Shown piece by piece: positions 342-31,753 of a stretch of DNA of 32,108 nucleotides; positions within the stretch are counted from its first letter, which is position 1, and every line of letters begins with the position of its first letter. The notes below the pieces were generated by a model. It was given only the letters and a program-made list of their open reading frames with translations. It was not told the DNA's origin and did no database searches. This stretch comes from Bdellovibrio sp. (lineage in GTDB: Bacteria > Bdellovibrionota > UBA1018): contig JACRAO010000075.1 of the NCBI GenBank assembly GCA_016213345.1, positions 1 through 32,108 on the forward strand. The letters run 5' to 3'. The position numbers were made by a program, and so were the translations under genes.

Positions 342-1021
342 TTGAATTAAAAGACGTAACAAAAATTTTTACAATGGGGGATGAAGATATTCGTGCACTT
401 GACCATGTGGATCTAAAAATTCAAGAAGGAGAATTTATTTCTATCATAGGCCCCTCGGGATGCGGAAAATCTACGTTACTTAGTCTTTTGGGACTGCTAG
501 ATCAACCAACAACCGGTGTTTACAAACTTGATGGACAAAGTGTTGAGTCTATCAAAGACGATCAAAAAGCAATGTTACGAAATCAAAAAATAGGATTTGT
601 ATTTCAGACGTTTCATTTGTTACCAAGAGCTAGTGCGTTAAGAAATGTTGAGATGCCACTAGTTTATTCTGCAAACTATAGTGTGCAGCATACAGGTGCT
701 AAAATGAAAGACATGGCACTCGAAGCTTTAAAGAAAGTGTCGCTTACTGATCGGGCAAATCATAAGCCAAATGAACTCTCTGGTGGTCAGAGGCAAAGAG
801 TGGCTATTGCACGAGCACTTGTTAATCATCCCAAAATACTATTGGCGGATGAGCCTACTGGAAATTTGGATTCTAAATCAGGTAATGAAATTTTAGATAT
901 TTTTCAATTATTAAACAAATCCGGAGTAACTGTGCTTTTGATTACACATGACCCAAAAATTGCAGATCGGGCAAGAAGAAAAGTATTAATGCTTGATGGA
1001 AAAATAGTGCCAGAAAAATAA
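332..1021 (+). CDS. ABC transporter ATP-binding protein, MacB/LolD-type
   Basis: Walker A GPSGCGKST, ABC signature LSGGQRQRVAIARAL, Walker B ILLADEPTGNLD and H-loop ITHD. Length of 229 aa fits the family. Confidence 0.92.
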   Translation: MALIELKDVTKIFTMGDEDIRALDHVDLKIQEGEFISIIGPSGCGKSTLLSLLGLLDQPTTGVYKLDGQSVESIKDDQKAMLRNQKIGFVFQTFHLLPRASALRNVEMPLVYSANYSVQHTGAKMKDMALEALKKVSLTDRANHKPNELSGGQRQRVAIARALVNHPKILLADEPTGNLDSKSGNEILDIFQLLNKSGVTVLLITHDPKIADRARRKVLMLDGKIVPEK

Positions 1022-1047
1022 TGGAGAAGAAATAATGGAGGATAGTC

Positions 1048-2253
1048 TTGCCAATTCGTGAAGTTTTGATTTTAGCTTTTGAGTCACTTTACGCCAATAA
1101 ACTTCGTGCAAGTCTTACGATGTTGGGCATGATTATTGGAGTTGGAGCTGTTGTACTATTGGTATCTATAGGAAACGGCGCAAGAAATTATATTACTAAA
1201 CAGTTCGAAGGTTTGGGAACAAATCTTATTGTTGTTCAGCCAGGAAAAACAGATAAGAAAATGTCTTTTGGGCCGCCAGTAGGAAATTCAAAAGAAAAGC
1301 TCACACTTGCAGACGTTGACGCACTCGAAAAACAAAGTGCTTATTTGGATGCTGTTACTGGTATTTTGTTTGGAGCAGGTACGGTAAAAACGCTTGATCG
1401 CTCAAACAACGTCAATATTCTTGGCACTAATGACAAATTTGTAAAAATTTTTAATATTATAGTCACGCAAGGTCAGTTTTTTGCTACTGAAGAAGAGCAT
1501 GGCCGTAGGGTTACGGTATTGGGAGGTCATCTGGCGGAGAGTCTATTTGGGGAGCAAAACCCTGTTGGGCAAATGGTAAAAATTAATGATAGTGAGCATC
1601 GGGTTATTGGTGTTATTAGAAAGGAGGGCACGAAGCTTGGTTTCAATATGGACGATGTGGCGTTTGTGCCCACAAAGACAGCTATGAAAATTTTCAATGA
1701 TGATAAACTTTTTGGTATTCGAGCTCGTGCAAAATCAAAAATTAGCATGGATGATGCAATAGAGGAAATAAGAGATATTTTAAAAGGTCGTCACAATGGT
1801 GAAGAAGACTTTACAATCATGAACCAGTATTCGATGTTAGAGGCGCTGAACACTATATTAGGAATGATGACTTATGTGCTTGCCGGGATTGGTATGATTT
1901 CGATGGTAGTTGGTGGAATTGGGATTATGAATATTATGCTTGTGTCGGTAACTGAACGCACACGAGAAATTGGAATTCGTAGAGCAGTAGGGGCAAGAAA
2001 AAGAGATATTTTGAAACAATTTTTAACAGAAGCAATTGCACTGTCGCTTATTGGTGGAGGACTAGGATTATTTGGTTCGGTTTCTCTGACTTATGTAGCT
2101 TATGGTTTTTTGAGAAGTTTTGATATGAGAGCACCGGCGTGGATTTTTCTTCCGGCATTTTTAATTTCCGTACTAACTGGAGTTTTATTTGGGGTATGGC
2201 CTGCCAAAAAGGCGGCTGCTCTAGAAACTATAGACGCATTGAGGTATGAGTAA
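1048..2253 (+). CDS. ABC transporter permease, MacB-periplasmic-core/FtsX family
   Basis: TTG start preceded by GGAGG. N-terminal TM helix, large periplasmic domain and C-terminal FtsX-like 3-TM bundle (TERTREIGIRRAVGARKRDILKQFLTEA motif). Confidence 0.88.
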   Translation: MPIREVLILAFESLYANKLRASLTMLGMIIGVGAVVLLVSIGNGARNYITKQFEGLGTNLIVVQPGKTDKKMSFGPPVGNSKEKLTLADVDALEKQSAYLDAVTGILFGAGTVKTLDRSNNVNILGTNDKFVKIFNIIVTQGQFFATEEEHGRRVTVLGGHLAESLFGEQNPVGQMVKINDSEHRVIGVIRKEGTKLGFNMDDVAFVPTKTAMKIFNDDKLFGIRARAKSKISMDDAIEEIRDILKGRHNGEEDFTIMNQYSMLEALNTILGMMTYVLAGIGMISMVVGGIGIMNIMLVSVTERTREIGIRRAVGARKRDILKQFLTEAIALSLIGGGLGLFGSVSLTYVAYGFLRSFDMRAPAWIFLPAFLISVLTGVLFGVWPAKKAAALETIDALRYE

Positions 2254-2258
2254 AACTA

Positions 2259-3029
2259 ATGGATTTTGTATCTAATTTTTTGAACAGTTTATTGAGTTTA
2301 GAGCCTGCGCAAAGCCATATTGGGCATTATTTACTTGCTGTCATTGTCACTTATGCTGGTGGAGTGCTCTCAAGTCTTACGCCTTGCGTTTATCCAATGA
2401 TCCCAATTACTGTGAGTGTAGTGGGAGGGATATCGGGTCATTCTCGTAGGTCTTGGAAGGAAGTTCTCTTTCGTATCATAGCGTATATGATAGGGATGAC
2501 ACTGGTTTATTCTTTTTTAGGAGTGGCAGCCGGCTTGACAGGTAAAATTTTTGGGTCTTTTACTAATACCTCTGGGTGGTATTTATTTTTAGGAATAATT
2601 TTGACTTTAGCTTCTCTAATGATGCTCGAAGTTATTAGGTTTGATCCAAGTCAGTTTATTCATAAATTAAAAAGATCTCATACCAAGCAGCATCATTTGG
2701 CAAACCCTAAAGAAGTTACACATCTTGGGGCATTTTTTTTGGGTATTTCGTCAGGTTTTATAGCTACACCTTGTACTACGCCAGCTTTGACCTCGGTGCT
2801 GGCTTTTATTGCACAAACGCAGTCTGTTGGTGTGGGATTACTGCTTATGTTTTCTTTTTCACTGGGATTAAGTACAATTTTGCTCCTGATTGGACTTTTT
2901 ACGGGTGCGTTACAAATTTTGCCAAAATCTGGGAAATGGCTAGAAATGGTAAAATTAACAAGTGGATTGATTTTACTCGCTTTTGCCGGGTATTTGATTT
3001 ATCGATCAGGACAGCTATCTGGAGTGTAA
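2259..3029 (+). CDS. ccdA: Cytochrome c biogenesis / thiol:disulfide electron transporter, CcdA/DsbD family
   Basis: Polytopic membrane protein with the two hallmark Cys-Pro motifs in TM helices (LTPCVYPMIP and ATPCTTPAL). Confidence 0.8.
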   Translation: MDFVSNFLNSLLSLEPAQSHIGHYLLAVIVTYAGGVLSSLTPCVYPMIPITVSVVGGISGHSRRSWKEVLFRIIAYMIGMTLVYSFLGVAAGLTGKIFGSFTNTSGWYLFLGIILTLASLMMLEVIRFDPSQFIHKLKRSHTKQHHLANPKEVTHLGAFFLGISSGFIATPCTTPALTSVLAFIAQTQSVGVGLLLMFSFSLGLSTILLLIGLFTGALQILPKSGKWLEMVKLTSGLILLAFAGYLIYRSGQLSGV

Positions 3030-3034
3030 AAAAC

Positions 3035-4228
3035 ATGTCGCACACTATTAACACAACTAAGAACACAACCAAGAATGTAACGACTAATCCAAACCTAAAG
3101 CTTTATTCTTTATTAATTTTAACTCTCACAGGATTTGTGATTTCTTTTCTCCTTTCAAAACACTTTTATGAAATAAGAAGTGGCTTTGCGTTTTTCAAAT
3201 CTTTTTGCAATATTAATTTTCAATGGAATTGTGATGCTGTAGCATTGAGTCGATACGCTGAAACCTTTTTTGGCATTCCGCTTTCGAACATTATAGCAGG
3301 TTGGTTTTTAAGTTTTTTTGTCATTATACTCTTTGCGTTCAATCGCGATTGGTTTTATGAAACTATCAAAGCAGCTTTTGTTTTTTCTGGGGTTGGTGTT
3401 ATTTTTTCGATTTTTTATCTTGTCATAATGGTTTTTGTTTTAAAAACTTTCTGTGTTTTATGTGTCATTGTTGAGGGTATTAATATTTTATCATTGATGT
3501 TGGTTTTTTTGCTTAAACCTTCTTTGAAAAATCCAGATTTTGCTAAGTGGAAAACATTTGGTATTTCGACCTTAATCATAATGTCTCTGTCTTTATTATT
3601 TTTAAATAACCTAAAACCGGAGTCATTACCCGCTTCTGTTGTTAATGACACTATTGATTCGATTTTGAGTGCTGCACCGGTTTCTGTAGGTGAAGGGAAA
3701 AATCCATTAATATTTGGTTCCAGTGAAGCGCCAATTACAATTGTAGAGTTTAGTGATTTTCAGTGTCCTCACTGTAAACATGGAGCAATTCTTATGAATA
3801 CATTGCTCACTCGTTTTCACAACAAGTTACGTGTTGTGTTTAGAAATTTTCCATTAGATCCTTCTTGTAATCGCAGTATGCAAGGTGGGGGTGGGCATGC
3901 TGTTGCTTGTGAAGCAGCGAAAATAGTGATTTGCGCAAAAGCACAAGGAAAGTTTAAGGAAGTTTACGAATTATTTTTTGATAACCAAGCAAAGCTAGAA
4001 CTTGTTGGGCCATTAAAGTTGGTAAAGCTGGCCAAAAATTTAGAAATTGATGAACAAAAACTATTACAATGCATTAATGCTGAAGACACTCAAAAACAAT
4101 TGTCTTGGGACATAGAGGAGGGAATGCGATTAGGTATTCAGTCCACACCGACTTTTTTTATTAATGGCAGAAAAGTAGAAGGTGCTTTACCAATGGTAAT
4201 TTGGGAAAAAGTTATTGAGCAACTTTAA
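3035..4228 (+). CDS. VKOR (vitamin K epoxide reductase)-DsbA/thioredoxin fusion protein
   Basis: I prefer the ATG at 3035 (same frame as the 2771 ORF) because it removes the overlap with ccdA. N-terminal 4-5 TM domain carries the loop Cys pair (CNINFQWNC) and a membrane CVLC. The C-terminal thioredoxin fold has FSDFQCPHCK plus the cis-Pro region STPTFFING. Confidence 0.8.
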   Translation: MSHTINTTKNTTKNVTTNPNLKLYSLLILTLTGFVISFLLSKHFYEIRSGFAFFKSFCNINFQWNCDAVALSRYAETFFGIPLSNIIAGWFLSFFVIILFAFNRDWFYETIKAAFVFSGVGVIFSIFYLVIMVFVLKTFCVLCVIVEGINILSLMLVFLLKPSLKNPDFAKWKTFGISTLIIMSLSLLFLNNLKPESLPASVVNDTIDSILSAAPVSVGEGKNPLIFGSSEAPITIVEFSDFQCPHCKHGAILMNTLLTRFHNKLRVVFRNFPLDPSCNRSMQGGGGHAVACEAAKIVICAKAQGKFKEVYELFFDNQAKLELVGPLKLVKLAKNLEIDEQKLLQCINAEDTQKQLSWDIEEGMRLGIQSTPTFFINGRKVEGALPMVIWEKVIEQL

Positions 4229-4616
4229 GTTGTTTAGCGTATCCTGTCTTAAAAATAACATGATCCGCTAAAAACAGCACAATTTTGGGTGCCCGGTATG
4301 TAATAGGCAACAACAAGTCGGATCCCTTGTTTTTTTAACCTTTCCATAAAGAAAAGGTCTCCCAAATAAATTGAAACCTGTAAAAACTTATCCAAAGAAA
4401 AATGGAAATAATAGACGTTTCTTATATAAAAGATTGTGCAAGAGAACAGTTTGCAAGTGTAGTGGTGATTGTCGCTTGAGCTCCATTTTGTAAGGTTAGA
4501 GCTTCCACTTTTGTCACATTCGAGCGCTTTGAGTTGATAAAAGATGAAAGTCCGAATTTAGCTATATAAAAGGACTGATGATTGTGCTAAAATCAGACAT
4601 AAGGAGGCCAGTAAAT

Positions 4617-4946
4617 ATGGCTGAAAATCAAATTAGACCCCCGGTACAAACAGCAACTGACATTATTCCTATTGCTAAGTTCAAAGCACAGGCTTCAACC
4701 TATCTTAATCATATTCGCGAAAATAATCATCCACTAGTTATTACACAACATGGAAAAGCAGCTGCCGTTCTGCTCTCTCCGGAAGAATTCGATCGGCTCC
4801 AGAAAATCATATACGAGCGTTACTTTTTAGGTGTGCTCGCTCAAGGACAGACTGATGCACTTCAGGGTCGGACTATTCCACATGAAGAAGTGAAACAACA
4901 ACTTCACCAACGCTATTCCCAGCAAAAAAGGGCCGCTCATAAATGA
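4617..4946 (+). CDS. Type II antitoxin, Phd/YefM family
   Basis: AAGGAGG lies 9 nt upstream of the ATG at 4617. The sequence IPIAKFKAQASTYLNHIRENNHPLVITQHGKAAAVLLSPEEFDRLQ is the classic Phd/YefM N-terminal fold. The stop overlaps the toxin start (ATGA). Confidence 0.8.
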   Translation: MAENQIRPPVQTATDIIPIAKFKAQASTYLNHIRENNHPLVITQHGKAAAVLLSPEEFDRLQKIIYERYFLGVLAQGQTDALQGRTIPHEEVKQQLHQRYSQQKRAAHK

Positions 4947-5248
4947 AAATTGTTTGGAGTCTTGGCGCTCAAACAAACTTACAAGAAATTGGGGATTATA
5001 TTGCACAAGACTCTCCTGATCGTGCCTTCTCTTTTCTTTTTGAGCTCATTGATTACGCTGAAAAAGTATTGATGTTTCCAAGAGCTGGCCGCAAGGTACC
5101 GGAAACAGATCTTGATGAAATACGTGAAGTGATCCATAAAAACTACCGAGTAGTGTACTTAATGCAGAAACACCAAGTTCTCATTCTATCTGTCCAGGAA
5201 GGTCACAAAATGCTAAAAGTCTCTGAAATTTGTGATACAGACATCTAG
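4943..5248 (+). CDS. Type II toxin, RelE/ParE family
   Basis: 101 aa, with a 4-nt overlap onto the antitoxin. The pattern W...A..DL.EI.DYIA.DSP..A..F...I......L..FP..GR...E......RE.......Y...Y is ParE-like. Confidence 0.78.
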   Translation: MKIVWSLGAQTNLQEIGDYIAQDSPDRAFSFLFELIDYAEKVLMFPRAGRKVPETDLDEIREVIHKNYRVVYLMQKHQVLILSVQEGHKMLKVSEICDTDI

Positions 5249-5296
5249 TATTGGAAGCACCGATTCAAAAATGGTCCAGAAACACCGGGGGCTAGT

Positions 5297-5513
5297 ATAC
5301 CATTTAAGTATGTACAAATTTGGAACCTGCTCCACTGGTTGCGCAAAGGCATGGTCGGTTACGGACACACAAAATATTCATAAAGTTTTTGGAAATCTAA
5401 AAATCTGACTCAACAGAACGCATCATGATGTTGAACCGAAACATTTTCCGAGTTGTTTGGACGAGTTTGTTTTTCGATTTAATCTACGCAAGACTCCTAT
5501 GGCTGCAAAATAG
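5297..5513 (+). pseudogene. Decayed C-terminal remnant of an IS1595 (ISXO2-like) family transposase
   Basis: Two short frames read ...IWNLLHWLRKGMVGYGHTKYS* and then ...KHFPSCLDEFVFRFNLRKTPMAAK*. These match the conserved C-terminus of IS1595-family transposases (..FW..LKRG..G.YH.VS.KHL..YLDEF.FR.NRR). The match is broken by a stop or frameshift and no N-terminal part is present. Confidence 0.55.
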
Positions 5514-6019
5514 CAGGCAGTTCTGGAAGTTGGCAAACTGGCAATCAGGCAAGCATGATCAGGATCTGGACCAGGTACCAGGGTTTTGGATGAGTTTATA
5601 AAGAAGAGCTGCAACTTGATCTGCAAGCTCAATCAAGCCATTTTGTTCAATAAGATCAAACTCTCTTGGACTTATTTGGTACTACAGAGTTGATTCATGA
5701 GGCCGATTGTTTAGGTGCTTCTTTGTATTATCTTTGTCGTGGCTGTAGAAACAGTTACAGCAACTGATACCGATACTGATTCTGAGACAGAGACAGTTAC
5801 TGGTTTGATTACTTTGCACCCCACAGCCTGGTTACAAATTTTACACTTGCAGAGTTTATATGCATCTAATTTCAGTATAATGCTCTCCTGCTCAGAATGG
5901 ATATATGTCCTTAAACTCTTTCATTATAAATACTTATCCGAAATGTTTTAAATACAAAAATACTGGCACCAGTTTTGCATGAGTTTATTAATAAGCTTTT
6001 TGGAATGGAATACAAAAAG

Positions 6020-6067
6020 CAGAGAGATTGCCAGAGAGATTGCCAGAGAGATTGCCAGAGAGATTGC
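6020..6067. repeat. Perfect tandem repeat, 4 x 12 bp (CAGAGAGATTGC)
   Basis: Read directly: units at 6020-6031, 6032-6043, 6044-6055 and 6056-6067. The array ends 49 nt upstream of the ATG at 6117. Confidence 0.95.
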
Positions 6068-6116
6068 ATGATACAAAACTGCTGAAATAGAACGTTAATG
6101 ACGGGAGAAGTGATTT

Positions 6117-6608
6117 ATGTCAAAAAATATGAATTATTTAGGTGTTGCATGTTTGTTTTTGAGTCTCTGTTACTTACAAGCATTCACATTCGCTGATGAC
6201 AAAGAAGTTAGCGTGAGAGACCAAGAAGTTATTGACCATCTCAGACAAGTGGAGAAAAGAGTTATTGATAATCATGAAAGAAAAAAAGCAGGTAATAGGT
6301 TTGTTTTAAGTTTTGAGGCAAAAATCATTAAACCACTGGATGATGCAATGGCTGTTTTAAAGGATCCTAATCGCACGCAAGAGCATAAAGATAGAATACA
6401 ATTTCTTTTACAAAGGCCTATTGGGCATTTGAAATATATTTCCGGTGAACTTGAACTTTTGGCGAATTCTAAAAAAGAAGGAGACATTAAGAAGACAGCA
6501 AAAAGACTTCTCTCTAATTGCAACAGATACAATAATATCTTTAAAAAATATATTGCAAGATTCGAGGGAAAAGAAGAGGAATTGAAAGCACGATTAATCG
6601 TTTTTTAA
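6117..6608 (+). CDS. Hypothetical secreted helical protein (first gene of the envelope cluster; probably continues into the next ORF)
   Basis: GGGAGAAG RBS and signal peptide MSKNMNYLGVACLFLSLCYLQAFTFA/DD. The Lys/Glu-rich helical sequence matches no family I recognise. The stop lies at the end of a T6 run. Confidence 0.65.
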   Translation: MSKNMNYLGVACLFLSLCYLQAFTFADDKEVSVRDQEVIDHLRQVEKRVIDNHERKKAGNRFVLSFEAKIIKPLDDAMAVLKDPNRTQEHKDRIQFLLQRPIGHLKYISGELELLANSKKEGDIKKTAKRLLSNCNRYNNIFKKYIARFEGKEEELKARLIVF

Positions 6609-6751
6609 CAACACTGGAAGACGTAACAAGCGAAGCACAAGATGTAGTTAATAACATATTATCGAGATTAGAAACCATAATAGATGATACAAAACAAGAT
6701 CTTATCTCTCTGCGAGATAGTCTTCAGACTGCGTATAGTGATATACGTGAA

Positions 6752-7231
6752 ATGGTCAAAACTGGTAAATCACCGAATCATCCCCGTTCAAATGAGAGTG
6801 AGAGTAAACCAATACAACGTCCAAAACAGGTTGACTTGGCAGGTGCTGAATTACTTAAAGACGAGGCAAGTGCAGTTTATCAATTGCGATGTGCAGTGTG
6901 TATCAAAGACATAAATGAAATGAATGATAAAGTTTTGGAACTTTTAGGGACGTTACGACATGAGCGTGATGACAATAAGAAATCAGAGAAAACAGAAGAG
7001 TTGAAACGAATACTTGATCTTATATTGGTATGTAAAAAACGACTTGAGTGTACGGATACAAAAGCATGTGCTCTTTCTACGGATAAACCATGTCGCATGC
7101 AAGACCTAATGGAAGTGCACAAAGAATACGAAGATGTCAAAGAAGAATCTAGCGCCATACAAGACAAAATTAATGTATTTACTGATTTAAATACACCAGA
7201 AGTCAAGTCAGATCAGGCAGAAGTCAAGTAA
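6752..7231 (+). CDS. Hypothetical Cys-containing coiled-coil protein (likely the C-terminal part of the 6117 gene)
   Basis: The ORF-track start is 6752, but this frame is open and protein-like from 6545 (…FLTTLEDVTSEAQDVVNNILSRLETIIDDTKQDLISLRDSLQTAYSDIRE-M…) with no start codon. This suggests fusion to 6117-6608 by a 1-nt frame change. Confidence 0.6.
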   Translation: MVKTGKSPNHPRSNESESKPIQRPKQVDLAGAELLKDEASAVYQLRCAVCIKDINEMNDKVLELLGTLRHERDDNKKSEKTEELKRILDLILVCKKRLECTDTKACALSTDKPCRMQDLMEVHKEYEDVKEESSAIQDKINVFTDLNTPEVKSDQAEVK

Positions 7232-7243
7232 TGAGGATCAAAC

Positions 7244-7735
7244 ATGAGAAATTATATTTTTATTATTGCAGTTTTATTTGGTCTGATAGGGTGTGGAAAA
7301 TTTTTAGATAAAACTGTTTCTCAATCAAAAACGGATGACTCTCAAAAATCCAATGCTATTGAACCCCTCAAAATTAGCAAGTTTGATATTCAAGAACATC
7401 CAGTTAAGATTACATGGGAAGCAAATATCAATCAAAATGCTGACTATATTATCCAGGCTTGTTTTGAAAATTATATCGATTGTGTAACATATTATCAGAT
7501 CGAATGTTTAGATAAACAAAACTGTATAATCAAAGATGACGCAAATCGTGAAATACAAAATCGTGTAGAACTGAAGAAAGATTTACTTACCGATAAAAAC
7601 ATCAAAAGATTTATTTTCATAGATAATAGGTTTGAATATATTTTTAGTGATGAAAACAATCTCTTGTTTAAAATACGAGCTTATAACCAAACTGCTAATG
7701 GAAATTGGGAATTGTTTTCGCGAGTTGCTCCCTAA
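7244..7735 (+). CDS. Hypothetical lipoprotein
   Basis: Signal peptide with the classical lipobox LFGLIG-C-GK. The mature part is beta-rich, and KITWEAN... possibly indicates an Ig/FN3-like fold. No recognised family. Confidence 0.7.
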   Translation: MRNYIFIIAVLFGLIGCGKFLDKTVSQSKTDDSQKSNAIEPLKISKFDIQEHPVKITWEANINQNADYIIQACFENYIDCVTYYQIECLDKQNCIIKDDANREIQNRVELKKDLLTDKNIKRFIFIDNRFEYIFSDENNLLFKIRAYNQTANGNWELFSRVAP

Positions 7736-7783
7736 GTTGCTCAATGCAGAGTAACTTAAGTTGTGTTTGTAATGGAGTTAGAA

Positions 7784-8680
7784 ATGTCAAAGAGAAGATA
7801 TGTAATTTTCTTTTTAATAATAGGCATACTGCCTGTATCTTGTGGTAAAGTTGTTGAAACAGAGTCAAATCTAAATTTGTCTACACTAGATGCAAAAGAG
7901 AGCATTGATATTCGTAAAAAGACTGCCATACAAATCAAAGACGAACTCAATAAGTTTTTGACTTTAGCTAAACATATTCAGAGAGTAACAGAAATTGTTG
8001 CATATACTCTTGCTTCTCCAATATATAACTCATTGAGCCAGATATTTAGTGTTTCATTGTTTGACACGTTTTTAGTACAAATGTTTACCAGTAGATTTAG
8101 ACTTGTGCTACTGAGATTATCTTACGGAGATGTATATTTTTCTCATAATGGCACATATTTCATTAGCAAAAGATTGCAATTTCCAACTCATCCATATGAT
8201 TTAAATAGTATATTAGAACTTATTAAACAAAACAGACTGTCAGAAGACGTTCAAACTGCGCCATTTAGATTTGACATGCTTAGAAATAAATATACTGATC
8301 TCGATACAACAGAGATTTCTATAACAGACGAATCAAATCAAAATACATTTTTGCTTACAAAATATAAGACTGATAATCTGCTTAAAACAGCTGGCGTTAT
8401 TTATCCAAATAATTTCTATGAACTAAAAACATCTAAAAATACACAAGGCATTTGTCAATTTGGTTTTGAAGTCGATAATATGAATTTTGTTTGTGATAAT
8501 TTTCAGGTTTATAGTTCAGCTACCTTGACAAAAATTGATACATTTCGCCTTAGTGGAGATCTAGAAAATCCAGAAGTTTTTCTAAAAACTATATTTTTGG
8601 GCCCGCAAGGCTCTAAAGCGGAAACAACTTTTACAGGAAAGCTAAATAATTTATCCATAACTACGAGGGTTTTAAATTGA
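7784..8680 (+). CDS. Hypothetical lipoprotein-like exported protein
   Basis: I prefer the ATG at 7784 (GGAG 6 nt upstream) over the GTG at 7763. N-terminus is MSKRRYVIFFLIIGILPVS-C-GK (signal peptide plus Cys). No recognised family. Confidence 0.65.
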   Translation: MSKRRYVIFFLIIGILPVSCGKVVETESNLNLSTLDAKESIDIRKKTAIQIKDELNKFLTLAKHIQRVTEIVAYTLASPIYNSLSQIFSVSLFDTFLVQMFTSRFRLVLLRLSYGDVYFSHNGTYFISKRLQFPTHPYDLNSILELIKQNRLSEDVQTAPFRFDMLRNKYTDLDTTEISITDESNQNTFLLTKYKTDNLLKTAGVIYPNNFYELKTSKNTQGICQFGFEVDNMNFVCDNFQVYSSATLTKIDTFRLSGDLENPEVFLKTIFLGPQGSKAETTFTGKLNNLSITTRVLN

Positions 8681-9537
8681 AATGCATTTCGAAATATATT
8701 ATTTTGCTTGTGTGCTTGTCTTGCTTGAACTGTGGCAATCCCAGGCAGGTGTACAAGCCATCTTCTGTCGCTGAAGCAGAAGATCTAATAGATAAGGGTG
8801 AAAACGAAAAGGCCATCTTAATATTAGAGAAATATATGCAAGAGGAACCTAAGAATAAAGAAGTAAAAATTTTACTTGCATCTGCATACTTGGGTTATGC
8901 GGGTTTAAGCATTTATTCTTATTTTGAGTCGTTTCATGACTTATTATTCGAAAGACCACTTTCGGAAACTCTCTTTGGAGATAAGAGTTCACAAGATTTA
9001 GCTTCGGTTTCTATCAATATGCCAGGCTTGAATGACGATTTGGCACCGATAGAAGTCATGCTTCTTAAGTTAAGTCAATTTTTTTTGATTGCAAGCAATC
9101 AGCTTTCTTTTTTTAATCGTTTTAATACTGTTATGCCTGCGTATTGGCAATTTGTTGATAGAGCACTTAAGTTAATTGATTCGACTGAAAAGACAAATGA
9201 TATAGTTTTATATAAAATTTTAATTTGGATTATTTATATAAAATCATACTTGAAATACAATATTGTTGGTGACAAAAGTGTTGGTTCTAGACAATGGATT
9301 TGTAACTTAGATGTCGAAAGATTTTATTTAGATATAAAGTGGATACTTCGCTCTGTATTAATTATAGTTAAAGATGTAAAAATCATAAAAACCGAAGGGT
9401 CCGCCGCTCTAAATGATTTAGAAATCGGTCTAAGTGATATTGAACACATCATGAATGAATTTAGTGATCAAAAAAATGGGGTGCGATTAAGCCTGAAAGG
9501 ACTGGAATATCAACTAAAATGCACTCCAGAACTATAG
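8677..9537 (+). CDS. Hypothetical lipoprotein with an N-terminal TPR-like repeat
   Basis: TTG start with a 4-nt overlap onto the upstream stop. Signal sequence MKCISKYIILLVCLSCLN-C-GN. AEAEDLIDKGENEKAILILEKYMQEEPKNKEVKILLASAYLGYAG resembles a TPR hairpin. Confidence 0.65.
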   Translation: MKCISKYIILLVCLSCLNCGNPRQVYKPSSVAEAEDLIDKGENEKAILILEKYMQEEPKNKEVKILLASAYLGYAGLSIYSYFESFHDLLFERPLSETLFGDKSSQDLASVSINMPGLNDDLAPIEVMLLKLSQFFLIASNQLSFFNRFNTVMPAYWQFVDRALKLIDSTEKTNDIVLYKILIWIIYIKSYLKYNIVGDKSVGSRQWICNLDVERFYLDIKWILRSVLIIVKDVKIIKTEGSAALNDLEIGLSDIEHIMNEFSDQKNGVRLSLKGLEYQLKCTPEL

Positions 9538-9543
9538 TGATAT

Positions 9544-10620
9544 ATGAAAATATTTATTATTTTTCTAACTAATCTATTTTTTCTGTGTAATGTTTATGCT
9601 GAAGATATTTCATTTACATTTGATTATATGCCAAGCAGGTTTGAAACAAGAGAGTTAACAGCCGGTTCTAGAGCACTTGGAGAACTTTGTACTTCATGGG
9701 CTGTAATGCCAGATGGAACAGTTTGTAATAGTGCTTTTTTGAATCAAAATACTAAAAGTTTCTTTTTAGGCAGATTTTATATTGGCAATGGATATAGTGC
9801 GCTTTCAACTGCAAATGCGGTTTTACTTAAACCAATTACTAAAGACACACTAAAAAAAGTATTCGAAAATAACTCAGTCATCACTATGGAGTCACAAATT
9901 GATTTAGTTTTTGTGACTCCATATTTTTCAATCGAGTTTGCACCGTATAGGATTCAATATTTTTCAGAAATACATAATCCTAATTTTCCAATCATAGCAC
10001 TTCATGCATCGTTAGAAAAAAGAGTAAAATTAAGCGGCAATCTTAAGCTATCCAGATTCACTCCCGCATTAAGTCAGTTCACTTTGGGTTTGGAATTAAG
10101 ATTATTAGATAGAAAGTATATACATAATAGTTTTTCGTTTTTTAAAGCTATTGCTAGTCCAGATGCAGGGTTACTGCCCGTTAACAATCAAAGAGCGGTA
10201 TTTTTGGATCCATCAATTGGTTGGGCTTCTAGAAAATGGCCATGGAAAACTAGAGCTAGTATTGCTGCTAGAAACATAGGCAAAGTTTGGTACAGCAATT
10301 CGCTCTACCCAGAATACACAGATATAGATATCGGCGTTGGTGTTGAACCACCAGTAGAGATTGGGCAGCTTGGTGTTGGCATAGAATTTGTAAATCTTAT
10401 TTATGCTCAGGATTTTATTTCTCGAATGCGTTTTGGGGGGTCATATAAGCTTGGGATGATGGAGATTATGAGTGGCGTTAATGCGAATTCACTAGTGACA
10501 GGGCTTGAATTTGGTGTCAATATTTTTCAAGCTGGTATTGTTTATGAGTTTATACGAAATGATTTGAGAGGATTGGGCCCTGAAAACAAAATTTCTACAG
10601 AGTTTTCTTTTAAACTTTAG
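9544..10620 (+). CDS. Predicted outer-membrane beta-barrel protein
   Basis: Signal peptide MKIFIIFLTNLFFLCNVYA/ED. Amphipathic alternating strands run throughout (LDLVFVTPYFSIEFAPYRIQYF; LVTGLEFGVNIFQAGIVYEFI) and the C-terminal strand is aromatic-rich (STEFSFKL). No specific family recognised. Confidence 0.6.
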   Translation: MKIFIIFLTNLFFLCNVYAEDISFTFDYMPSRFETRELTAGSRALGELCTSWAVMPDGTVCNSAFLNQNTKSFFLGRFYIGNGYSALSTANAVLLKPITKDTLKKVFENNSVITMESQIDLVFVTPYFSIEFAPYRIQYFSEIHNPNFPIIALHASLEKRVKLSGNLKLSRFTPALSQFTLGLELRLLDRKYIHNSFSFFKAIASPDAGLLPVNNQRAVFLDPSIGWASRKWPWKTRASIAARNIGKVWYSNSLYPEYTDIDIGVGVEPPVEIGQLGVGIEFVNLIYAQDFISRMRFGGSYKLGMMEIMSGVNANSLVTGLEFGVNIFQAGIVYEFIRNDLRGLGPENKISTEFSFKL

Positions 10621-10630
10621 TGTTTGGCTT

Positions 10631-11236
10631 TTGATTGTATCCCTTTTTGTTGGGCCATATGCTTTAGCTGAAGTCGATTATTTTGACTATTTGCACAAAA
10701 AAAGTGCTAATTTAAATCTAGAAAACAAAACGAATGGCTGGGCATACATGATTAGTGGAGCCCTTGTTCTGGGGGGTTCGATACCTGGTTATTATCTTTC
10801 TAAGGAGATTTTCTCGAAAGTAATTTATACGGCTGGTCAAAATTTTGGTATTGCTGGTATTGGTTACGGAGCTTATCTAGCTTTTATTGATAATGATTAC
10901 AAGCGGTTTGAAAATATTTTGCAAAAAACTCCTGAATTAACAAGAGAACAGAAAAATAAACTTGCTTATTATTTTTTTAAAGATCGAGCTGAACAGGCTA
11001 AACGTATACGAATGATCAGAGTAGTATCCCATGGTTTGTCAGCGGGTCTTAATATTTTGAATGGCCTGACATCAGATTCTAAAGAATTGGGACTGGCTTT
11101 ATTTTTTCTTGGTGGTGTTAATGTTTTGGCATCAATTGGTTTGTTGTTCTCACAATCTGCAGAAGAAAAGATGTTAACCAGTTCTTTTTCTGCAACACCC
11201 AAATTTGCTGCACTAAATATTACTTATCATTTTTGA
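10631..11236 (+). CDS. Hypothetical integral membrane protein
   Basis: Several hydrophobic helices (WAYMISGALVLGGSIPGYYL, IAGIGYGAYLAFI, LGLALFFLGGVNVLASIGLLF). The TTG start is uncertain: the frame is open from 10568 and reads like a longer signal/TM segment. Confidence 0.55.
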   Translation: MIVSLFVGPYALAEVDYFDYLHKKSANLNLENKTNGWAYMISGALVLGGSIPGYYLSKEIFSKVIYTAGQNFGIAGIGYGAYLAFIDNDYKRFENILQKTPELTREQKNKLAYYFFKDRAEQAKRIRMIRVVSHGLSAGLNILNGLTSDSKELGLALFFLGGVNVLASIGLLFSQSAEEKMLTSSFSATPKFAALNITYHF

Positions 11237-30850: not shown

Positions 30851-31753
30851 TTAATAGTTTTGAGAAATGTTTTTTGGTTTTTCAGCCTTATGAAAATCAA
30901 AAGCAGTGTCAATGAGCCAACAGGTGGGGTTTCTTAGCATGTATCTGCGTTGATATAACCAATAAGGCTCTGATGTAGATATGGGTTGAGATATAAAGTT
31001 GTTTATCTTTTCAAAAAGTTTATTATATGCGGTATTTTTATTTTTTTGTGACTCTTTAAAAATATCAACTAAAAATTTTTTAACTTCTTTTGTGGATGCA
31101 GAGTGGTCTGGATTTTTGCCGTTTTTGTTGTCTAAGACAATAACTCCAATTGCTCCTAAAAATTTTCTTTGTAAATCAGAGTTATTTTGAAATGCTTCTA
31201 AGAAATAATTAAAACTCTCTTGATACATTTTATCTGATACATTTAATTCATTAATGACAACTAAAAAATCTACAATTTCATCATAGTCCATTTGTTTAAA
31301 TTCTTCTGGATCCAGCCAGTCTTTAATGATGGCTTTATAAGTTTCATTAACTATTTTAATGTAACTTTCATAAGTAAGATTGTTTCGCATAACATTAATA
31401 CAGTCGGTTGTAAATCTTCGGTTTTGGAGAGCTTGGTTTTGATTATTGTTTTGCAACTCTAGCAGAACTTCTGCGATAGTTTTTTTTGTGCTTTCTGATA
31501 AATCAGTGTGGTTTTGGCCCATATCAATGTTAAGCATATTTAAGAATTCATGTCTTTGCTTTGGGCTTTGTTTTATTATAATTTGGCTAAGAGTATTTTT
31601 AAAGTCTTCTTTAGTTTTTGAGTAACGAGATAGAACTTCTAAAGTAACAGCACCATACAGGGTAGTTTCAATAAGTGCGCTTTCGGTCCATTTGTGTAGT
31701 ATTTTTGGATTTTTTACAAATTCTTCTTTTAGTGAATCAAAACAGTTATGCAT
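30851..31753 (-). CDS. Hypothetical helical protein (probably the C-terminal 300 aa of a longer gene)
   Basis: Long ORF whose frame stays open and protein-like upstream of the ATG, to 31960. No recognised family. Confidence 0.6.
   Translation of the reverse strand: MHNCFDSLKEEFVKNPKILHKWTESALIETTLYGAVTLEVLSRYSKTKEDFKNTLSQIIIKQSPKQRHEFLNMLNIDMGQNHTDLSESTKKTIAEVLLELQNNNQNQALQNRRFTTDCINVMRNNLTYESYIKIVNETYKAIIKDWLDPEEFKQMDYDEIVDFLVVINELNVSDKMYQESFNYFLEAFQNNSDLQRKFLGAIGVIVLDNKNGKNPDHSASTKEVKKFLVDIFKESQKNKNTAYNKLFEKINNFISQPISTSEPYWLYQRRYMLRNPTCWLIDTAFDFHKAEKPKNISQNY

Follow-up and report, generated by a model that had tools for sequence, protein, structure and literature searches.

Do seven adjacent genes for exported proteins make up one envelope system, or do only some of them belong together? 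The question is raised by positions 6117–11236 of a contig of 32,108 nucleotides (nt) from a metagenome-assembled "Bdellovibrio sp." genome; we refer to the whole contig as the window, and proteins identical to those encoded in it bear HY843 locus tags. Seven open reading frames (ORFs A to G) occupy this block, all on the forward strand and where the initial annotation had placed them as a seven-gene operon. The seven ORFs on one strand stand; as a functional unit the operon does not, because only the last four ORFs, D, E, F, and G, are conserved. These encode two lipoproteins, an outer-membrane barrel, and a secreted helical protein. We read this module as a putative FadL-superfamily outer-membrane complex with novel partners; its conservation and the odd features of G are real.

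The evidence for the unit comes from loci that were collected by contig look-ups and by a scan of one genome per species. We read 17 loci, about 14 of which were distinct after removal of duplicates, from Bdellovibrionales, Bacteriovoracaceae, Pseudobdellovibrionaceae, and two "Bdellovibrionota bacterium FG" genomes. The barrel protein F (gene at 9544–10620) has 40 homologues with 41–53% identity, all of them from Bdellovibrionota metagenomes or genomes. Homologues of E (8677–9537; 26–31% identity) adjoin the barrel gene upstream wherever that sequence is present (12 loci), the G gene, where present, comes after the barrel gene in every locus read, and the order E-F-G was kept in tblastn searches wherever the contig was complete, except in FG-1 (locus L011), which has no G match. 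An iterated jackhmmer search found a D-like lipoprotein gene immediately 5' of E in 10 distinct loci (13 as listed), and the homologues of D (7784–8680) diverge fast, with only 12–17% identity. The window itself matches all four profiles in co-linear order: lipoprotein, TPR lipoprotein, barrel, and helical protein with an aromatic end. Neither A/B (the first two ORFs taken together) nor C has a homologue in any related locus, as judged by iterated hidden Markov model searches and by comparison of flanking ORFs. Because only D, E, F, and G recur together while A/B and C match nothing, we take D-E-F-G to be the conserved unit; co-occurrence in relatives, which the initial annotation put forward as a check on all seven genes, holds for D to G and fails for A/B and C.

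The surroundings of the module also set it apart. Its flanks are unrelated between genomes, so that it lies in a different context in each, and all-against-all clustering of the flanking ORFs identified no additional conserved neighbour. In the genome with the closest relative of F, D-E-F-G stands alone; ahead of D come a spacer of 270 nt and a gene that runs on the other strand. In three distant contexts (GC content 36–47%), a G-like gene (E-values of 1e-15 to 1e-47 against the G-family profile) follows an F-like barrel gene and one or two E-like genes, and D is detectable in only one of the three. As these contexts keep E-F-G and D was found in one, the deep core appears to be E-F-G, with D as a rapidly diverging fourth member. 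Within the block, the annotated gaps of 6–12 nt and single 4-nt overlap were borne out for B–C (12 nt), E–F (6 nt), F–G (10 nt, if G starts at TTG), and D–E (a 4-nt overlap), but not for A–B (143 nt) or C–D (48 nt). If G starts at CTG 10580, it overlaps F by 41 nt, and overlaps like D/E and F/G recur in homologous loci. On its gene content and layout, D-E-F-G (7784–11236) is a predicted self-contained, translationally coupled outer-membrane module.

Some copies of the module differ from this pattern. The F-like barrel gene lies in two frames in L011, L015, L016, and L020, which include Bdellovibrionota FG-1 and FG-2, and in FG-2 the D and E genes are fragmented too; these split or fragmented modules may be decaying in some lineages, or they may be artefacts of assembly. 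In L022–L024, which represent a distant lineage (GC about 36%), there are two tandem E-like paralogues of about 430–444 amino acids (aa), and the G-like gene is followed on its 3' side, on the same strand, by four DUF3015 genes and a gene for a Lnb_N/DUF7843 protein. In L001, genes for LuxE/LuxC-type acyl-protein synthetase and reductase and for AMP-binding proteins (1012–6115) lie directly 5' of the module on the same strand. This fatty-acyl gene neighbourhood fits a lipid-related role, but it occurs once and so is not evidence for one.

The barrel gave the clearest structural answer. An AlphaFold2 model of F (358 aa) from a 34-sequence alignment, with a predicted local distance difference test score (pLDDT) of 85.7 and a predicted TM-score of 0.81, contains 14 β-strands by DSSP and, ahead of the barrel, an N-terminal segment of about 50 residues with short helices. 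The 9544 product had been described as a signal peptide followed by an outer-membrane-type barrel, and the model confirms this. The best Foldseek match in the PDB is chain F of the type 9 translocon (8gl6_F/6h3i_F; TM-score 0.55), which we take to be PorV. TodX (3bs0), FadL, TbuX, and CymD come next, with a probability of 1.0 for TodX and FadL, and the FadL-like barrels of Bacteroidota β-barrel assembly machinery (BAM) complexes (9hiv_F, 9hjm_F, and 9n2d_B) are also among the matches. As modelled, F has 14 strands and falls in the FadL/TodX/PorV/BamG class of barrel folds. PopA of Bdellovibrio, the only protein that turned up in the literature on Bdellovibrio and FadL, was considered as a counterpart of F and rejected, as this porin-like protein has 16 strands, is a pentamer, and is absent from the top 50 structural matches of F.

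The most conserved block of the F family lies ahead of the barrel, at residues 41–60. The N-terminal segment, which contains a disulfide, has an invariant pair of cysteines (C49/C61) within the family motif C-x11-C-N-P-A; the family consensus reads ...SRALGE-x14-C-N-P-A..., P63 is at least 90% conserved, and C-N-P-A is retained even in distant members. The sequence of E. coli FadL reads GRAYSGE...N33-P34-A35 in its N-terminal hatch, and the N33A and P34A mutants of FadL appear among the PDB entries in the structural matches of F. Local alignment of the N-terminal segment of F with the FadL hatch was weakly significant (shuffle p of 0.006–0.08), and we regard the shared N-P-A as a lead toward true FadL ancestry and no proof of it. 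The C-terminal residue of F is Leu or Ile, not an aromatic residue, in 32 of the 34 sequences. In Pfam, 10 of 34 relatives of F match PorP_SprF (PF11751; the best at 26.6 bits against a cut-off of 22.3), and the window's F does not. The match is confined to the last 65 or so residues, at profile positions 218–271 of 273. To judge from these comparisons, F belongs to no named sequence family.

The two genes ahead of F encode lipoproteins, as annotated for the 7784 and 8677 products. D (298 aa) is the first gene of the module and has a GGAG Shine-Dalgarno sequence ahead of its ATG at 7784; E (286 aa) overlaps its end. Both families have a signal peptide with a lipobox cysteine that is aligned across homologues, the lipobox of the window's E being degenerate (CLNC/CLSC). 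D and E have no Asp at position +2, and by the sorting rules of E. coli they would therefore be directed to the outer membrane. D consists of a helical N-terminal part and a C-terminal part with an invariant pair of cysteines (C224/C237), and E has its own invariant pair (C209/C282). We recovered the TPR-like hairpin attributed to the 8677 product, which is the only one in E, lies near the N terminus, and scores below threshold (TPR_19; E = 1.9e-4, 22.2 bits against a cut-off of 25); the remainder of E is probably helical. When the homologues were searched against Pfam, sub-threshold TPR matches appeared for E only, and neither D nor its homologues had any Pfam match. Sequence-profile searches of the PDB with D, E, and F found no relative; what they returned, for example coiled coils and a ribosomal protein, was noise. 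In an hhalign comparison of E with E. coli BamD, only the signal peptide and the first TPR aligned (probability 43%).

By sequence, D, E, and G fall into no family of Pfam or NCBIfam, and no model of either collection reached threshold for any of the seven products. The annotators' statement that no product has a recognizable family or domain is accurate in this sense, but fold comparison by Foldseek places F in the FadL/TodX/PorV/BamG class. Their view that the set matches no known trans-envelope complex agrees with our Pfam, NCBIfam, and PDB sequence searches, in which the Lpt and Lol systems, the known Bam accessory proteins, and the pilus and secretion families did not appear.

The last gene, G, is the most unusual. 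When G is read from the annotated TTG (10631–11236; 201 aa), its signal peptide is truncated, and the frame is open back to 10568. From a CTG at 10580 (10580–11236; 218 aa), ahead of which lies a GAGAGG Shine-Dalgarno sequence, the signal peptide is complete (MKTKFLQSFLLNFSVWLLIVSLFVGPYALA/EV), and on these sequence features CTG 10580 is most likely the start; the resulting overlap with F is close in geometry to that in locus L003 (38–44 nt, depending on the start chosen). The homologues of G have ordinary type I signal peptides followed by variable linkers. An AlphaFold2 model from 36 sequences (pLDDT about 97 over residues 20–180) has two long helical hairpins, with helices at 17–56/60–85 and 105–147/151–173. 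It has one hydrophobic end, in which Gly, Ser, and Asn are abundant, and the bundle contains polar residues that are conserved (S42, H134, N141, T147, and N164). G was compared with the PDB by fold only, and Foldseek found no significant neighbour (best E of 0.35); among the top-ranked entries were designed four-helix bundles, F-BAR domains, and AhlB/SmhB, with probabilities of 0.84–0.91. A comparison of hairpin 1 with hairpin 2 for internal duplication was not significant (E of 0.25).

The family of G is large but hard to detect. A single-sequence, word-indexed search gave 3 matches, and profile and exhaustive searches were needed; an exhaustive profile search of 1.84 billion representatives (E ≤ 1e-3) yielded at least 169 clusters at 50% identity. 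Members recovered by indexed searches have no Pfam domain. An N-terminal hydrophobic signal region is present in 131 of 154 representatives. The C-terminal residue is Phe in 137 of the 154 full-length representatives (89%) and Phe, Trp, or Tyr in 146, with a hydrophobic residue at −2; the window's G ends in ...ITYHF. In a closer subgroup, the tail resembles a β-hairpin that ends in G-x-x-aromatic-x-Phe. An end of the form hydrophobic-x-Phe or G-x-x-aromatic-x-Phe is the classical C-terminal β-signal of outer-membrane barrel proteins. The terminal Phe typical of an outer-membrane protein (OMP) is thus found on the helical G, whereas the barrel F ends in Leu or Ile. G is thus predicted to be exported by a cleavable signal peptide and is probably not a plain inner-membrane protein. 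The multi-helix description of the 10631 product is supported by the helical hairpins of the model, but the inner-membrane label attached to it is made doubtful by the signal peptide and the terminal Phe.

How might the four proteins work? We infer that they interact and act jointly, and we tentatively favour a reading, possible though somewhat short of probable, in which D-E-F-G form one autonomous outer-membrane complex around F. By analogy with FadL-family barrels, whose lateral opening arises from a kink in strand S3, F would be a lateral-gate barrel. G would use its C-terminal strand or hairpin to dock on or beside F, or on the assembly machinery, by β-augmentation or BAM-type recognition; its hydrophobic helical end would touch the membrane, so that G would add a membrane-embedded helical bundle. 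At the inner, periplasmic leaflet of the outer membrane, D and E (the latter through its TPR hairpin) would serve as a scaffold, and the assembly would pass or hold a hydrophobic ligand there, either lipid-like or a hydrophobic protein segment. The cysteine pairs in D, E, and F and the export signals in all four proteins fit an extracytoplasmic location. Our doubt falls mostly on the location of G and on the nature of the cargo, small molecule or protein.

Several observations weigh against this autonomous outer-membrane complex. The window's own F has N-S-A in place of N-P-A. Neither F nor its 34 relatives match the Toluene_X Pfam family, hhalign gave a probability of 1% for F against E. coli FadL, and F has no match among PDB sequences at E ≤ 10. 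In a short subgroup of G, the terminal Phe comes directly after helix 4 and therefore need not be part of a β-strand. Position-independent, Hessa-type sums for G are +3 to +6 for helices 1 and 2 and −0.2 to +3.9 for helix 4, which is marginal, and they overlap those of a bona fide inner-membrane protein of the same window; the helices of G could equally span the inner membrane. In the clustering of the flanking ORFs, no ligand, enzyme, or regulator accompanied the module consistently. Operons of uncharacterized envelope proteins are common, and none of the present observations points to a function of D to G.

These points lead to the first alternative, a trans-envelope system of the same four genes, in which G would be an inner-membrane protein of four helices with both termini in the periplasm, E and D would bridge the periplasm, and F would be the outer-membrane conduit. 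In favour of this, the four helices of G are hydrophobic and some 20 residues long, the fourth equals ordinary transmembrane helices in hydrophobicity, and a segment that is strongly hydrophobic usually halts transfer through SecYEG; the AlphaFold2 bundle, which carries a polar helical extension, is also of a size to fit a membrane. In this topology, however, the juxtamembrane Lys/Arg cluster of G (residues 116–130) would face the periplasm, contrary to the positive-inside rule, and the near-universal hydrophobic-x-Phe end, a hallmark of outer-membrane proteins, would be left unexplained. D and E are each about 290 aa with no recognized bridging fold, and flank clustering linked no ATPase or proton-motive-force motor to the module. 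We consider this arrangement rather unlikely. The initial annotation had seen in the block the parts list of a trans-envelope complex; given the signal peptide and the OMP-type terminal Phe of G, a complex confined to the outer membrane is at least as likely.

A second alternative places F among the protein-handling adaptor barrels, such as PorV, PorP/SprF, and BamG, and not among the small-molecule channels; F would hold or display a partner at the cell surface, with either D or E threaded into the lateral opening or G attached by the tail at its C terminus. The best structural matches of F are of this kind (the T9SS, or type 9 secretion system, chain and the FadL-like BAM barrels), and so are the 10 PorP_SprF matches in its family. 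There is precedent in the binding of the lipoprotein BamH by BamG (PMC12611786), and PorP-like proteins anchor cargo encoded next door (PMC9143113). Set against this are TM-scores of only about 0.55, the restriction of the PorP_SprF match to the end of the barrel and its absence from the window's F, and the finding that no T9SS genes or cargo with the T9SS type of C-terminal domain were detected by Pfam among the called neighbours in those loci whose called genes were read. An adaptor role of this kind is, in our estimation, unlikely.

A third possibility concerns the C terminus of G more directly: G may be an α-helical outer-membrane protein, or a "β-signal in trans" subunit that, by means of an OMP-type C-terminal strand, is recruited to, or completes, a FadL-like barrel that has itself lost the terminal aromatic residue, with E as its dedicated TPR receptor. 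We regard this idea as improbable.

The remaining alternative turns on the genes upstream of D. A (6117–6608) has a type I signal peptide, as annotated, and B (6752–7231) follows in a frame that stays open upstream into the end of A. A T6 run lies at 6601–6606, at the stop codon of A, and the addition of a single T joins A and B into a 371-aa ORF. Because the B frame is open into A and a single T restores this ORF, we take A/B (6117–7231) to be one gene broken by a frameshift, as the initial annotation had suspected; its product would be secreted and coiled-coil-like. The frameshift could be an assembly error, a mark of a pseudogene, or homopolymer slippage. C (7244–7735) encodes a small lipoprotein of 163 aa whose lipobox, LIG-C, is the one assigned to it. 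A/B has no Pfam match and C no Pfam or NCBIfam family, and a metagenome contig scan in which fused A/B was the query (C was not queried) found no close relative of the fused protein. In the gap between C and D, a consensus scan detected a weak terminator-like hairpin on the forward strand (7733–7758), whose 10-bp stem includes 3 GC pairs and whose T tail is weak; the module may be delimited here from the local genes, and the hairpin itself is no evidence of function.

Further upstream, the annotated toxin-antitoxin pair, insertion sequence (IS) remnant, and tandem repeat are all present. The pair consists of a PhdYefM antitoxin and a ParE toxin, and after it comes the C-terminal remnant of a transposase (4578–5500); the remnant, at about 5400–5500 in a forward frame, reads "...HHDVEPKHFPSCLDEFVFRFNLRK", a motif by which we assign it to the IS1595 type. 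A perfect 12-nt repeat in four tandem copies (CAGAGAGATTGC ×4) lies at 6020–6067, between the IS remnant and A and about 50 nt 5' of the latter. The toxin-antitoxin pair and the IS remnant mark a variable junction upstream of A. On the comparisons above, A/B and C appear to be lineage-specific neighbours within this junction and unrelated to the module.

The composition of the block had been described as AT-rich. With a GC content of 0.33 against a window mean of 0.364, it is indeed the lowest-GC stretch of 5.1 kb in the window, and the 11 G+C in the initial 60 nt of the F gene were counted correctly. The deficit is only about 3 points, however, and lies within the range of single ORFs elsewhere in the window (0.30–0.42). 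For this reason we rejected horizontal transfer as an explanation of the AT-richness, which, like the mobile-element neighbours, is a property of the junction on the A/B/C side and not of the conserved module. The lowest GC in the window (0.30, below every gene of the block) belongs to a minus-strand ORF at 30851–31753 (300 aa). That A to G are a single dedicated seven-gene system acquired horizontally is very improbable and largely refuted, since the shared strand, short gaps, low GC, and adjoining toxin-antitoxin pair and IS remnant, which speak for it, are outweighed by the absence of A/B and C from all related loci and of A/B from the metagenome scan, the frameshift in A/B, the 48-nt gap with a hairpin ahead of D, and a GC deficit of just 3 points.

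Just upstream of this junction, at 2259–4228, lie genes for disulfide-bond machinery, namely, a DsbD/CcdA-type membrane protein and a VKOR-DsbA fusion. The TTG listed as a start at 2771 in this region overlaps the preceding gene, and the true start probably lies further downstream. Other genomes do not conserve this neighbourhood, although D, E, and F bear invariant cysteine pairs.

FadL-fold barrels were long regarded as channels for fatty acids and aromatic compounds, and recent work has shown that they are also protein-binding subunits of large machines (PorV in the T9SS and BamG in Bacteroidota). The D-E-F-G module would be a further, independent use of this barrel, in a phylum largely of predatory bacteria and with three partner families (D, E, and G) that carry no annotation. 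G is the most interesting part, as it combines at least 169 clusters and a confident, unmatched fold with the terminus of an outer-membrane protein on a helical protein. A location of G in the outer membrane would make it relevant to the targeting of non-barrel proteins to that membrane, and if it does act as a β-signal in trans, this would be a previously undescribed way to build an outer-membrane complex. The practical gain is a defined target of four genes, D to G rather than A to G, for genetics in cultured Bdellovibrionota that carry them.

Known systems resemble the module in different respects. F has the 14 strands of FadL and TodX, a similar size, and a conserved pre-barrel segment in which the family carries an N-P-A at a position similar to that of N33-P34-A35 in FadL. 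It differs in having no detectable sequence homology to them, an extra disulfide-bonded N-terminal stretch, and a C-terminal Leu or Ile in place of an aromatic residue, and it is always encoded with two lipoproteins and the helical G, whereas canonical FadL genes are not. BamD is a TPR lipoprotein that recognizes the β-signal of outer-membrane proteins, and Slam (type 11 secretion system) proteins join a TPR domain to a 14-strand barrel. A TPR-type lipoprotein (E) beside a 14-strand barrel and a G protein that ends in a β-signal recalls the receptor, barrel, and client of these systems. E has, however, a single detectable, sub-threshold TPR hairpin, compared with five in BamD, and no YfiO Pfam match, and unlike in Slam, the TPR and barrel are separate proteins, neither E nor F matches DUF560/SlipAM, and the neighbouring G is helical, whereas the adjacent substrate of a Slam has a β-barrel domain. 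The long helical hairpins of G with their hydrophobic tip resemble AhlB/SmhB of the tripartite α-pore-forming toxins, but G is half the size and has an OMP-type C terminus, and the match is not significant, given its E-values of 0.35–0.55 and TM-scores of 0.30–0.35.

The Bacteroidota barrels offer the closest parallel. PorV, PorP/SprF, and BamG include the best structural matches of F and the family that several relatives of F match weakly. The module differs from them in belonging to another phylum, Bdellovibrionota, in having no T9SS or BAM genes beside it, in the limitation of the PorP_SprF match to the C-terminal strands, and in possessing D, E, and G, which have no counterparts there. By its sequence features, the module does not belong with FadL, PorP/SprF, BamD, or Slam. 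In the Flavobacterium BAM complex, the lipoprotein BamH is bound by its N-terminal region in the lateral opening of BamG, a 14-strand barrel of the FadL family (PMC12611786), and the partnership of a FadL-like barrel with lipoproteins is the principle that these assemblies and the module would share (PMC12611786). FadL-fold barrels that bind lipoproteins as protein partners thus provide a precedent, by analogy, for F with D and E. Although a member of none of the known systems, the module probably works most like the FadL-fold barrel-plus-lipoprotein assemblies of Bacteroidota.

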